From the sequence record PQ352352.2: DNA of 64,000 nt. One strand, written 5' to 3'. Shown here in pieces: positions 47,265-51,227 of this stretch. The notes below the pieces were generated by a model. That model saw only the letters and a list, made by a program, of their open reading frames with translations, was not told the origin of the DNA and searched no databases. Within the stretch, counting starts at the first letter, position 1. The number at the start of each line of letters is the position of its first letter. The position numbers and the translations under genes were made by a program. This stretch comes from Escherichia phage vB_EcoM_PTE-Eco15.

Positions 47265-48152
47265 ATGTCAGTAGCAATTAATAATGTCAATGCAGTAATT
47301 AAATCTTTAGTTAATAAAAAATCAAATGAATGGACTGTACTTCAACGCGACGAGTCAGATAAATTTTTTCATAAATTTAACCCAGTACTAAATTTAAATG
47401 TTATTGATAAAGATGTTCACGCCGAAATTTTAGATAAGTTTAAAGTTGATATTGGACTTGGATTAGAAAAACATTTACAACGAACAAACGGATCTGGAAT
47501 GCTTTTATCTAATCGCATCATGAAAGCCCTTAATAAAATTGGAGCGTTGTCTCGCATTAACGCGAGTGAAATTCTTCGCAATTATAATAAAGGATACGAC
47601 CTTTATGGTCGACTAATGCCGAAATTATCATTTGACCAAATGATCGCAGATTTGTGGGAAAATCAACGACGATTATTAGCATTAGGCGCTCGATTAGCTA
47701 AAGGTCTAGATAAACAAATGATTTTTAAAACTAATAATACAGAAGACCTTAAATGCTTTAAATTTAGCACTCGTGGAGATGATTATTACGTCAGAGCTCA
47801 CTCTACAGATTATGCCAATATGGGTCATCATCTCTGTTTAGCTTTTGAAATTTTAAAAGAAGCTGGAACATTAGAATATTCATCTGGTGCAAAATGTCCA
47901 ATTGGTTCAAGTTGTATTTTAATTTATCGCCCGGATGAATCCAGTTCAACTAAATTGCCTACAAAACCTGCACCAGTTCGTAGTAACGAAAAACATTCTG
48001 AACAAATTGATTATTTTAATAAGCAAATTGAAGAGCTGAATATTTCTATTCAACAATATGACGATGAAATTTTCAGACTATCTGGATTGAGTAGTAAAGC
48101 TAAATCTGAGCGTGAAAAATTAATTAAAATTGTTGATTTACTTAAATCTTAA
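47265..48152 (+). CDS. Hypothetical protein, paralog family with C-terminal coiled coil (member 1)
   Basis: 295 aa from ATG after GAGGA; shares LGARLAKG and HHLCLAFEILKEAG-type blocks with the next three genes. Confidence 0.5.
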   Translation: MSVAINNVNAVIKSLVNKKSNEWTVLQRDESDKFFHKFNPVLNLNVIDKDVHAEILDKFKVDIGLGLEKHLQRTNGSGMLLSNRIMKALNKIGALSRINASEILRNYNKGYDLYGRLMPKLSFDQMIADLWENQRRLLALGARLAKGLDKQMIFKTNNTEDLKCFKFSTRGDDYYVRAHSTDYANMGHHLCLAFEILKEAGTLEYSSGAKCPIGSSCILIYRPDESSSTKLPTKPAPVRSNEKHSEQIDYFNKQIEELNISIQQYDDEIFRLSGLSSKAKSEREKLIKIVDLLKS

Positions 48153-48160
48153 GGAACACT

Positions 48161-49186
48161 ATGAAAACTCGTTCTCAAATTGAAGATATGGTTCGTAATG
48201 CCAGCTATACCCGTAATGTTATGACATTTTTGTGTGAAAATAATTTAGACCCTGATAGAGTTAATAGTTCCATTCACTTTAAGTATATGAATAGCAGTGA
48301 ATGGTTACGTCATTTTAGTAAAGCGGGATATATTACACAAATGACTGCTCGTGAGCAGCTCACCGATTTCTGTAAAACTATTGATTATAAAAATCCTCTA
48401 TTTGTTCAAGGCGTTGGTCAGAGTAAGGTCGATTTATCAACAGGATTTTTTAATCCAAATCATTATCGTCTTGAATGGAGATTTATTGCTCTATTCCGTA
48501 AACAATTAAAGCAAATTTTGTCTACTGCTAGTCGATTAAAAGGTTCTGATATTAACTTAAAGAATCTGAAATTTGATGGTTATACTCTTCAGATGGAAGT
48601 AAGACCGTTAAAAGAAAATAATAGAACTGCACGAATTAGCTTTAAACCTAATACAAAAAATTCTCTTTCAATTTGTGAATGCCTTAAATCACAGTTGACA
48701 GAAGCATTTAAGTATATGGATGTTGTTGCTGCTGTTCAATCTAAGATTTTACCTCGTTTTGAACGATTTAAGTTAGATACAACATCATATGAACTTGATA
48801 TGATCGTTTCATTTAAATACGATTTTTTGAGAAAGGACGAAGTCCCGCAAGAGAAAAAGCAAGAAGTACAAGATAACTTAAATTTAAATTTATCCAATTA
48901 CTTATCAAACGATCCTAAATTTTGGATGTATAGTTCAGGTAATAAGGATGCATGGAAATTCAATAAAGTGAATTTTCTTCCTATTGAAAATCCGAGTCTT
49001 AAACCTGTTGAAAAATGGCACGCGGATGCGATTGAGAAGTCTCTTAAAGCAGTAGATGATGAACTCGTTAAAGCGACCAATGAAGTGCTAGAAGCTGAAA
49101 AGATGCTAGAAAAAGCTCAAGAAAAAGTCAAAAATCTCACGAAGCAACGTTCTAAACTGAACAATGCACTAAATGCACTGAACTAG
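48161..49186 (+). CDS. Hypothetical protein, paralog family (member 2)
   Basis: 341 aa; starts MKTR; C-terminal coiled coil. Confidence 0.55.
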   Translation: MKTRSQIEDMVRNASYTRNVMTFLCENNLDPDRVNSSIHFKYMNSSEWLRHFSKAGYITQMTAREQLTDFCKTIDYKNPLFVQGVGQSKVDLSTGFFNPNHYRLEWRFIALFRKQLKQILSTASRLKGSDINLKNLKFDGYTLQMEVRPLKENNRTARISFKPNTKNSLSICECLKSQLTEAFKYMDVVAAVQSKILPRFERFKLDTTSYELDMIVSFKYDFLRKDEVPQEKKQEVQDNLNLNLSNYLSNDPKFWMYSSGNKDAWKFNKVNFLPIENPSLKPVEKWHADAIEKSLKAVDDELVKATNEVLEAEKMLEKAQEKVKNLTKQRSKLNNALNALN

Positions 49187-49215
49187 TTTACTTTGCCACA
49201 AGGATGTGGTATAAT
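49186..49215 (+). promoter_or_regulatory. T4-type early promoter
   Basis: GTTTACT, 17-bp spacer, TATAAT. Confidence 0.6.
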
Positions 49216-49243
49216 GTTCTTACTTTCTACTGAGGAGATTAAT

Positions 49244-50245
49244 ATGACTCGTAACGAATATATCAAATCATTCAATAGCGTTATTGATGATAAAGCTATA
49301 CCGATGTTTGGCCAAAATAGCGTTCTTTCTATTATCAATCAATGGCTCAATAGTGTTGATGCAGGTATTGTTTCTTCTACTAAATTTATTCATGAAATTC
49401 GTAAAATTTCTAGTCGTGTAGATAAAGATCTTATCAAGAAAACCTTTAAAGAGTCTCGTCTTCTTTCATATTTGGTTAATCGGGATATTCTTGGTAATTT
49501 TGGGAAAGAAATTAAACGAACCAAAGATGTAGTAGGATATAATTGGTTCGGTGATGTTAATTCTTATCATCTTAATAATAAAGAAGACCCTGAGAATATT
49601 TTTACTCGTCGTTGGATTAGTAATTTCAGACTTTTCAAAGGACACATTCTAAAATCAGCTTCTAAATTATGTTATGGCGATTATCGTCAAATTCATCCTT
49701 TGGCTTCTGATATGATTATCATAAAAGAATATGAACTTGATAAAAATAAAGTATCTATTTTTGTGAATTATGGATTTTTTACACCAGAAACTAACCAAAA
49801 GAATATTAATAAATTTTTCTCAATTGCTAGCACTATAACTCGTCAATTAGAGACCGCATTACTTTGTATGGAAACAGTAGAAAATATTCATACTTATCCT
49901 TTTAAGAATATATGCGGTTGGGAAGGATATAAACTCGTAATTAGCCTTCGTGAAGTAAAGTGCGCGTACTCACCGACTGATAAAGAAATTTACCAACAAA
50001 AATGTGATGAAATTGTGAATACTCCTAAAGAAGAAACTACCCTTGAGGAACTAATGGAATGTCTTGATGATTCACCTGAACCGATAGAAATTCGTCCAGA
50101 AGTTATTGCACTAGAAAAAGCTTATAAAGAAGTTCTAGAAATTTCTAATAAAGCGCAGAAAGAATATGAGCAGGCTAAAAGGATTTGGGAAGAATCTGTT
50201 AATCGCTTGGATCGTCTTGAACAAGCTTTACAGTTAATTAAGTAA
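49244..50245 (+). CDS. Hypothetical protein, paralog family (member 3)
   Basis: 333 aa from ATG after GAGGAG; shares FKESRLLSYLV, LFKGHILKSASKL and LLCMETVEN blocks with member 4. Confidence 0.55.
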   Translation: MTRNEYIKSFNSVIDDKAIPMFGQNSVLSIINQWLNSVDAGIVSSTKFIHEIRKISSRVDKDLIKKTFKESRLLSYLVNRDILGNFGKEIKRTKDVVGYNWFGDVNSYHLNNKEDPENIFTRRWISNFRLFKGHILKSASKLCYGDYRQIHPLASDMIIIKEYELDKNKVSIFVNYGFFTPETNQKNINKFFSIASTITRQLETALLCMETVENIHTYPFKNICGWEGYKLVISLREVKCAYSPTDKEIYQQKCDEIVNTPKEETTLEELMECLDDSPEPIEIRPEVIALEKAYKEVLEISNKAQKEYEQAKRIWEESVNRLDRLEQALQLIK

Positions 50246-50297
50246 TTTAAAGCCAAGGATGGCTCGGAGTACAAATCATTAACAAAGTGAGAAGAAC

Positions 50298-51227
50298 ATG
50301 AAAACTCGTAAACATTATATTGATTATTTTGACAGTCTTATTACTAAACATCGTAATTATCAGATAGGACACAGGGCAGTAATCAATAATATTCTTCGTG
50401 ATTTCCTTCAATATGTTGGCCAGGAAAATCATATCTGTAAAGATACTCAAAACGCTTATTCTCATTCGTTAGGCAATTTGCTTCAATGGTTTAAACGTTC
50501 TCGTCTGTTATCTTCTACTGTAGCTAGTGATAACATTAAAAACTTTATGAAGCCGAGCTTCATTAAATCTGAGACATCTATAACCGATTTGGTTGAATTT
50601 ACTATTGTTAACGATGTTAAAAAGACCCATTTGGCTGATTGGTTATCTACCATTCCCGAAACTAAATTTGCTGATAAATTCGCTTGTCAATTCAATGACC
50701 AAGTGAATATGCTTTTTAAGCATGCTCGCAAACTATTTACCGCGGGCGATGACCGTACAAATACAGTTCACGTTAAGGACTGGGTTACTGCTGATGAAGT
50801 AACACACAAGCCAGGTGGTTCATCAGTATTAATTAATATCCAGGTTCCTTATTATTACTCACGTAATCTCGGCACCATGACAGCTAGAGAAATTAATAAG
50901 CACAACAAAACTATTCGTTCGTTGTCTTATAAACTCTGCACGATGGTGGAGATGATGGACGTAGTGGAAATGTATGACGAAACCGAAGATAATGGTTCAA
51001 TGCTGTACAGTTCACGCATTCTAATTAAACTGAAGAACCCTAATACATATAAGCAAGTTGTAAAAGAGCTTAAAGTAGAAAAGGTTGATAATCTGAGTGA
51101 AGAACGCGAATATCTCAATGCTCGTTTGATTGAAGTTGAAGCCCAAATTGCAGAACACACCAAATTGTTAAAAGCTCTTAATGCAAAAGCAAATGGTTTA
51201 CGTAATGCTATTGAGGTATTGAAATGA
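50298..51227 (+). CDS. Hypothetical protein, paralog family (member 4)
   Basis: 309 aa; starts MKTR; blocks FKRSRLLSSTV, LFKHARKLFTAGDD, LCTMVEMMDVVE; C-terminal coiled coil. Confidence 0.55.
   Translation: MKTRKHYIDYFDSLITKHRNYQIGHRAVINNILRDFLQYVGQENHICKDTQNAYSHSLGNLLQWFKRSRLLSSTVASDNIKNFMKPSFIKSETSITDLVEFTIVNDVKKTHLADWLSTIPETKFADKFACQFNDQVNMLFKHARKLFTAGDDRTNTVHVKDWVTADEVTHKPGGSSVLINIQVPYYYSRNLGTMTAREINKHNKTIRSLSYKLCTMVEMMDVVEMYDETEDNGSMLYSSRILIKLKNPNTYKQVVKELKVEKVDNLSEEREYLNARLIEVEAQIAEHTKLLKALNAKANGLRNAIEVLK

Follow-up and report, generated by a model that had tools for sequence, protein, structure and literature searches.

Bacteriophage T4 is the best-studied lytic phage, and about half of its genes are without known function. 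Escherichia phage vB_EcoM_PTE-Eco15 (sequence record PQ352352.2), of which a stretch of 64,000 nucleotides (the window) was analysed here, carries four consecutive open reading frames (ORFs) on the plus strand between positions 47265 and 51227, which we named A, B, C and D. A first-pass annotation made from the sequence alone had described them as tandem diversified paralogs, each ending in a coiled coil, and had proposed host-range or anti-defence selection for a family that it did not recognise. This locus raises the question of whether the four proteins are homologous at all and, if so, what they do for the phage. In this work, we find that A, B, C and D are the nrdC.6, nrdC.5, nrdC.4 and nrdC.3 genes of a Tequatrovirus and that they are true, anciently diverged paralogs of one small superfamily. 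We consider it rather probable that the array encodes early, dispensable, non-enzymatic and oligomeric anti-defence proteins with differing targets.

The nrdC.6-nrdC.3 array and the activity of NrdC.5

In megablast, the 4.6 kb around the array shows 98% identity to Tequatrovirus NIC06P2 and ∼93% to T4, and the order of the genes is that of the T4 annotation (NC_000866). The ORF list bears out the earlier description of four consecutive genes of similar size, 295-341 amino acids (aa). A is the nrdC.6 homolog (47265..48152, 295 aa), B the nrdC.5 ortholog (48161..49186, 341 aa), C the nrdC.4 homolog (49244..50245, 333 aa) and D a divergent nrdC.3 allele (50298..51227, 309 aa), with amino-acid identities to the T4 orthologs of 92.7, 93.6, 98.2 and 60.6%, respectively. 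The intergenic gaps measure 8 bp (A-B), 57 bp (B-C) and 52 bp (C-D), and the ATG of C is preceded by a GAGGAG ribosome-binding site. The B-C gap also contains a predicted strong promoter of the T4 early type (GTTTACTTTGCCACAAGGATGTGGTATAAT, 49186..49215, plus strand) with an extended -10 and a 10/12 match to the consensus, which would give C its own promoter. The array lies in the nrdC-mobD accessory region, flanked by nrdC.7, encoding a membrane protein, and nrdC.2, encoding a zinc-ribbon protein. On the minus strand, the array region holds short ORFs only, and an Rfam scan found no family in 44-54 kb of the window.

The statement that the family could not be recognised needs a qualification, since the families are already in Pfam as domains of unknown function (PF26899, PF23882/DUF7235 and PF26897). 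B matches DUF7235 over its full length (406.4 bits, E 1.2e-121; gathering score 30 bits) and belongs to phrog_2351; its alignment with T4 nrdC.5 spans 342 columns, and its neighbours are homologs of nrdC.6 and nrdC.4 as in T4. In the same hmmscan, A, C and D did not match DUF7235 at E ≤ 1 and are therefore not strict members of that family. The phrog_2257 profile matches A (E 4.2e-149), and PF26899 is precomputed on all 105 A homologs. C and D match phrog_1435 (E 1.7e-167 and 1.8e-114), whereas their PF26897 label is a precomputed assignment carried by all close homologs and not a direct scan. Except for DUF7235 in B, nothing rose above cut-off in the PADLOC, NCBIfam and Pfam scans. The genes themselves are thus already known as T4 genes, one of them with a published anti-defence role; what is new is the union into one superfamily of three families kept separate by Pfam and PHROGs (2257, 2351 and 1435), joined by a common tail and common motifs, as well as the domain map, the pattern of evolution and the connection with nrdC.2.

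The published role concerns the T4 ortholog of B. An evolved T4 clone with compensatory deletions lost the ability to plate on E. coli ECOR17, and plating of the mutant was restored by deletion of dsr1 in ECOR17; conversely, cloned dsr1 shields MG1655 from the T4 mutant, and T4 nrdC.5 alone allows the deletion mutant to plate again on Dsr1-carrying cells (Srikant et al., eLife 2022, PMC9391042). Dsr1 is a SIR2-type, NAD+-depleting host defence protein that is counteracted by T4 NrdC.5 (PMC9391042). In addition, T4 tolerates the removal of nrdC.1-6 (Yuan et al., NAR 2022, PMC9825161). Literature searches that covered alternative spellings and accession numbers turned up no more. T4 NrdC.5 and B share 93-94% full-length identity and the same position between nrdC.6 and nrdC.4; A, C and D, which lack the DUF7235 match, are remote homologs with the same head-linker-tail build. 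Since NrdC.5 switches off Dsr1, there is a good case for regarding A, C and D as candidate anti-defence proteins too. The suggested host-range or anti-defence role is thereby substantiated for the T4 ortholog of B, which defeats Dsr1 and is needed for plating on ECOR17 (PMC9391042), whereas for A, C and D we infer such roles, together with direct binding and oligomerisation.

In the mechanism that we propose, NrdC.5 neutralises host Dsr1, and the variable heads would differ in the host immune protein, or its trigger or activator, that they recognise, while the conserved coiled-coil tail would supply avidity through oligomers. Different paralogs and alleles would have different targets, and the array may thereby widen the host range. 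Comparable systems exist. DSAD1 of phage SPbeta, which inhibits the defence-associated sirtuin DSR2, is a functional analogue, although the four proteins resemble it in neither sequence nor fold. The T4 dmd-tifA-adfA genes ('anti-TA island') and the genes for the internal proteins IPI-IPIII are likewise clusters of small dispensable genes whose products are made early or injected, act against one host defence each and set the host range (PMC9391042). However, those clusters consist of unrelated genes, whereas the nrdC.3-6 array is one paralogous family on a common scaffold.

Homology, build and chemistry of the four proteins

Pairwise BLAST was significant for C and D only (E 8e-6, 26% identity over 226 aa); A-D was borderline (0.058), and A-B, A-C, B-C and B-D were not significant. 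The sequence blocks quoted in the first-pass annotation are real and occupy aligned positions of C and D (FKESRLLSYLV/FKRSRLLSSTV, LFKGHILKSASKL/MLFKHARKLF and CMETVE/MMDVVE); likewise, two proteins do begin with MKTR, namely B and D, and C begins with MTR. As BLAST linked only C and D, the paralogy of all four had to be addressed with profile methods. In a first pass with hhalign, the B and CD families aligned with 92.7% probability (E 4e-7), but A-CD reached only 18.7% and A-B a non-significant 0.3%. Taken with the BLAST results and with the three separate families in Pfam and PHROGs, these low values would be in line with a scenario in which only C and D are true paralogs, and the similar size and coiled-coil tail of the four are convergent.

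Several observations contradict this scenario. The register was identical across all three first-pass alignments (A87 = B50 = C66), that is, transitive over three independent comparisons. An exhaustive search with a merged-profile hidden Markov model (HMM) recovered just 31 clusters among 1.84 billion representatives, several of which are intermediates scoring against two or three family HMMs; for P0275, one of these, the values are 2e-3 (A), 4e-6 (B) and 2e-5 (CD). Pfam's own DUF7235 model likewise picks up distant members of the A-like and CD-like types. When each intermediate was first placed in the family that it matched best, the extended profiles aligned in hhalign over ∼240 columns with 98.1% probability for A-B (E 1e-13), 97.8% for A-CD (E 8e-13) and 97.1% for B-CD (E 6e-11). 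Composition effects of the coiled coil were excluded by cutting off the last 75 residues, and the heads alone still gave 92.9% for A-B (E 3.8e-7), 96.3% for A-CD (E 1.8e-9) and 95.8% for B-CD (E 6.9e-9). Moreover, in each genus the families occupy one and the same genomic position, and the structural models of A and B described below agree in the order of their secondary-structure elements and in their Foldseek targets. Convergence is accordingly highly improbable, and non-homology of the four can be considered essentially excluded; the claim of four paralogs stands, heads included. The picture of a tandem, diversified array needs one amendment, since we see no recent tandem expansion: the four genes share no repeat at the DNA level beyond chance-size matches of 19-27 nt, which indicates that the duplications are old, and the order A-B-C/D is kept across four genera.

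All four proteins have a common build consisting of a basic head, a disordered linker of 17-60 aa and a C-terminal heptad helix of ∼50 aa. The head is predicted to comprise N-terminal helices and a beta-beta-alpha-beta-beta unit. The heptad register of each tail runs without a break for 48-57 aa, and hydrophobic residues make up 80-94% of its a/d positions (94% in B) as opposed to 18-29% of the others. The tails span aa 242-295 of A (47988..48149), 285-341 of B (49013..49183), about 283-333 of C (50090..50242) and 263-309 of D (51084..51224), all on the plus strand; those of C and D were delimited by heptad analysis, and those of A and B correspond to long helices in AlphaFold2 (AF2) models, with a predicted local distance difference test (pLDDT) score of 81-93. 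Together, these data verify the heptad-rich tail of ∼50 aa that had been noticed on every member. The model of A (mean pLDDT 81) shows a head of aa 1-221, a low-confidence linker of aa 222-241 bearing a conserved PVPVRSNEK motif, and tail helices at 242-271 and 277-294. In the model of B (mean pLDDT 74), the head is followed by a disordered stretch (225-281; linker as a whole 225-284) and a single 56-residue helix (285-340). With its perfect heptad pattern, the C-terminal helix most likely drives oligomerisation, as judged from the sequence and a monomer model.

A heptad-rich C-terminus also occurs in the nearby nrdC.8 homolog (window 46267-46794, 175 aa), which has a charged heptad-like helix there (…ERQNTLRKFEERLKTVLA). 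It was considered as a fifth member and rejected, as the superfamily HMMs do not match it (E > 0.1).

Four short motifs recur in the superfamily. Motif I reads [FL]xKx[GS]x[LI][ST]xxx[AV]xxx[LI]xx[FY]xK. Motif II is A[SR][RK]Lx(1-3)GxD, exemplified by LALGARLAKGLD, STASRLKGSD, KSASKLCYGD and KHARKLFTAGDD; it is found at 47661..47711 in A (NQRRLLALGARLAKGLD), aligned with its counterparts at 48494..48550 in B (FRKQLKQILSTASRLKGSD), 49625..49681 in C (FRLFKGHILKSASKLCYGD) and 50691..50753 in D (FNDQVNMLFKHARKLFTAGDD), all on the plus strand. Motif III, LxxA[LF]xxM[DE][VT]V, is present in B, C and D, and the C-terminal end has the form [KR]LxxA[LI]xxL[KN]. In both AF2 models, the elements follow one another in the same order from motif I onwards: two helices, two helices with motif II, a beta hairpin, a helix with motif III, a second beta hairpin, the linker and the tail. 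Foldseek searches of BFVD with A and B hit the same proteins, A0A0A0PZG4 of Pectobacterium phage PM2 (5.5e-7 and 4e-6) and A0A2S1GM98 of Erwinia phage Cronus (2.8e-4 and 1.6e-8), with TM-scores to the common targets of only 0.38-0.49 and with C/D sequences included in the alignment behind the B model. No relative was found in the PDB, where the only sequence matches were weak ones to coiled coils of the GCN4, tetherin and gp41 type.

In many GenBank records, the homologs are named 'thioredoxin', and the genes adjoin nrdC, so that thioredoxin-like or ribonucleotide-reductase-associated proteins might be expected. However, the CxxC motif is absent from all four proteins, no thioredoxin or glutaredoxin family is matched in Pfam at E ≤ 1 or in NCBIfam at E ≤ 0.1, and the fold order predicted for A and B is unlike that of thioredoxin. 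We therefore rejected this identity. Given also that there is no PDB relative and no invariant residue, the common label is spurious, and it appears to have been propagated from the locus name nrdC.N. The chance that these are thioredoxin-like proteins seems negligible to us, and on the sequence features considered such a function may be regarded as essentially excluded. More generally, the alignment of the whole superfamily has zero invariant columns, which speaks against a common catalytic site, and Pfam revealed no catalytic domain in any of the four proteins. These two results and the lack of any NCBIfam or PADLOC match above cut-off are the reasons why we read the proteins as non-enzymatic.

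Distribution, natural variation and the nrdC.2 pair

Among 50,697 phage records searched with tblastn, homologs of A, B, C and D occur in 741, 581, 553 and 653 records, respectively. All of these records are enterobacterial T4-like phages, to which the superfamily is confined. Phages of E. coli have 3-4 copies in conserved order, whereas those of Klebsiella, Enterobacter and Pectobacterium have a single copy. The locus reads A-B-C-D in Tequatrovirus, A, B-like, C in Dhakavirus (Bp7) and Gaprivervirus (SP18), the B-like gene of the latter being split into two ORFs, and A-like, B-like, D in Mosigvirus (PhAPEC2). Mosugukvirus (PM2), Kanagawavirus (IME523) and Jiaodavirus (JD18) each carry one member of an intermediate sequence type.

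Compared with T4, the flanking genes are 98-100% identical, nrdC.7, nrdC.6 and nrdC.5 ∼93% and nrdC.4 98%, and nrdC.3 stands apart with 60.6%. Within D, residues 1-60 and the tail are 77-100% identical to T4 nrdC.3, whereas the centre of the head is only 40-57% identical, a pattern resembling replacement of the allele by cassettes. A version 60-80% identical to D is present in 239 records of the phage collection and one at least 80% identical in 362, so that at least two nrdC.3 allele classes circulate.

Natural rearrangements were also observed. The nrdC.6 of the T4 reference (NC_000866, L001:4260-5087) encodes 275 aa and departs from A after residue ∼258 (…IEEL followed by IFLFNNMMMKFSDYLD), which looks like a frameshift that would deprive the laboratory T4 sequence of the greater part of its coiled-coil tail. 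The split B-like gene of Shigella phage SP18 (L002:6038-6942) consists of gp093 and gp092, both of which match the nrdC.5 family HMM, suggesting a pseudogene or a sequencing frameshift. In Shigella phage Sf25, a nrdC.6 protein of 378 aa (P0001) has an internal tandem duplication of residues 176-258. A 299-aa protein from a metagenomic phage contig of 167 kb (P0161) joins residues 145-273 of nrdC.5 to residues 136-309 of nrdC.3 at a KVN/QVN microhomology; we discarded it as evidence of homology, as it is a simple nrdC.5-nrdC.3 deletion at three microhomologous residues. The occurrence of truncations, split genes and chimeras in nature indicates that individual members are dispensable.

These data bear on the possibility that the four paralogs join through their tails into one hetero-oligomeric complex with a single function. 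The tails of all families do align with 93-96% probability and end in a common +L..A[LI]..L[KN] motif, and the gene order is conserved in four genera, as such a complex would lead one to expect. However, composition inflates coiled-coil profile matches, C would have its own promoter, T4's own nrdC.6 is truncated in the tail, the SP18 gene is split and natural deletion chimeras exist. Above all, NrdC.5 works alone in complementing the deletion mutant and different genera carry between 1 and 4 copies, which makes an obligate hetero-complex unlikely; we give this possibility little weight.

The start of nrdC.2 (51224..51541, plus strand), which encodes a zinc-ribbon protein of 105 aa (CPxC...CRxC), overlaps the stop of D in the sequence ATGA. 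The last member of the family overlaps the nrdC.2 start in 8/8 genomes from seven genera, by 4 bases in seven of the eight and with the junction AAATGA in most. The two genes thus form what, from this arrangement, we take to be a conserved, translationally coupled pair, and its presence in all of these genomes makes nrdC.2 a probable functional partner.

The pair is also central to the main rival explanation, in which the proteins have an early function with NrdC.2 related to nucleic acids or to transcription and translation, and Dsr1 is defeated indirectly, for instance because its trigger is masked or removed. In addition to the coupling of the last member to a zinc-ribbon gene, this explanation can draw on the basic heads of the proteins (isoelectric point 9.0-9.6, net charge +5 to +12) and on the single copy in distant genera, which suggests one conserved core role; furthermore, the published work did not address the NrdC.5-Dsr1 mechanism and did not show direct binding (PMC9391042). 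Conversely, Pfam, NCBIfam and PDB searches gave no nucleic-acid-binding domain, the genes are dispensable on laboratory hosts and NrdC.5 restores infection alone, that is, without plasmid-supplied NrdC.2. The strong divergence of the head centre between alleles is also more typical of a protein-recognition surface. We consider this explanation improbable, yet worth keeping in mind.

Several points weigh against the anti-defence array that we favour. Its sole member with an experimental function is the T4 ortholog of B, for which we infer the binding, and oligomerisation is deduced from the sequence and a monomer model as its only basis. The B model is not fully independent evidence, because its alignment included the C/D family. 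Both the nrdC.2 coupling and the basic heads would fit a nucleic-acid-related role as well. Finally, the conservation of A, B and C within Tequatrovirus (83-95%), together with the long-kept order A-B-C/D, points to less turnover than arms-race genes usually show. A more elaborate version of the anti-defence reading, which we put forward tentatively, treats nrdC.3-6 as a so far unrecognised, modular superfamily of phage immune antagonists, with a head fold that has no solved relative and with NrdC.2 as partner, in which the coiled-coil handle and the N-terminus are conserved and the head centre is recombined to meet differing targets. Dsr1 would then be the first known target, and alleles would be swapped as in nrdC.3.

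Neighbouring genes and implications

Several observations concern the surroundings of the array. Upstream (window 43011-45105), the nrdC.11 homolog encodes a RlaP-type nucleotidyltransferase (PF10127, E 2e-11) and the nrdC.10 homolog an AAA/STAND-like ATPase, the latter with weak Pfam matches that stay below cut-off. An ORF of 239 aa (45102-45821), without a Pfam match, separates the nrdC.10 homolog from that of nrdC.9 and is not present there in T4; on visual inspection, its N-terminus (YYYGRH…GSG) resembles that of a GIY-YIG homing endonuclease. Downstream, tblastn found no counterpart of T4 49.3 or 49.2 in the window, and two small unrelated ORFs (52212-52421 and 52387-52560) take their place between nrdC and pin (window 52040-52560). 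The endonuclease VII gene (53071-53544) is immediately followed by an ORF of 273 aa (53541-54362) with a NUMOD3 motif of the homing-endonuclease type, in the place taken by nrdD in T4.

With respect to the biology of T4-like phages, the analysis turns nrdC.6, nrdC.4 and nrdC.3, present in 550-740 sequenced phage genomes, from hypothetical proteins into specific candidate inhibitors of other E. coli defences, and it corrects a widespread mis-annotation as thioredoxins. The domain map, with its variable head, linker and coiled-coil tail, can be used for mutagenesis, and NrdC.2 is designated as a likely partner. For phage therapy, the presence or absence of the array and the type of its alleles may predict host range among T4-like phages.

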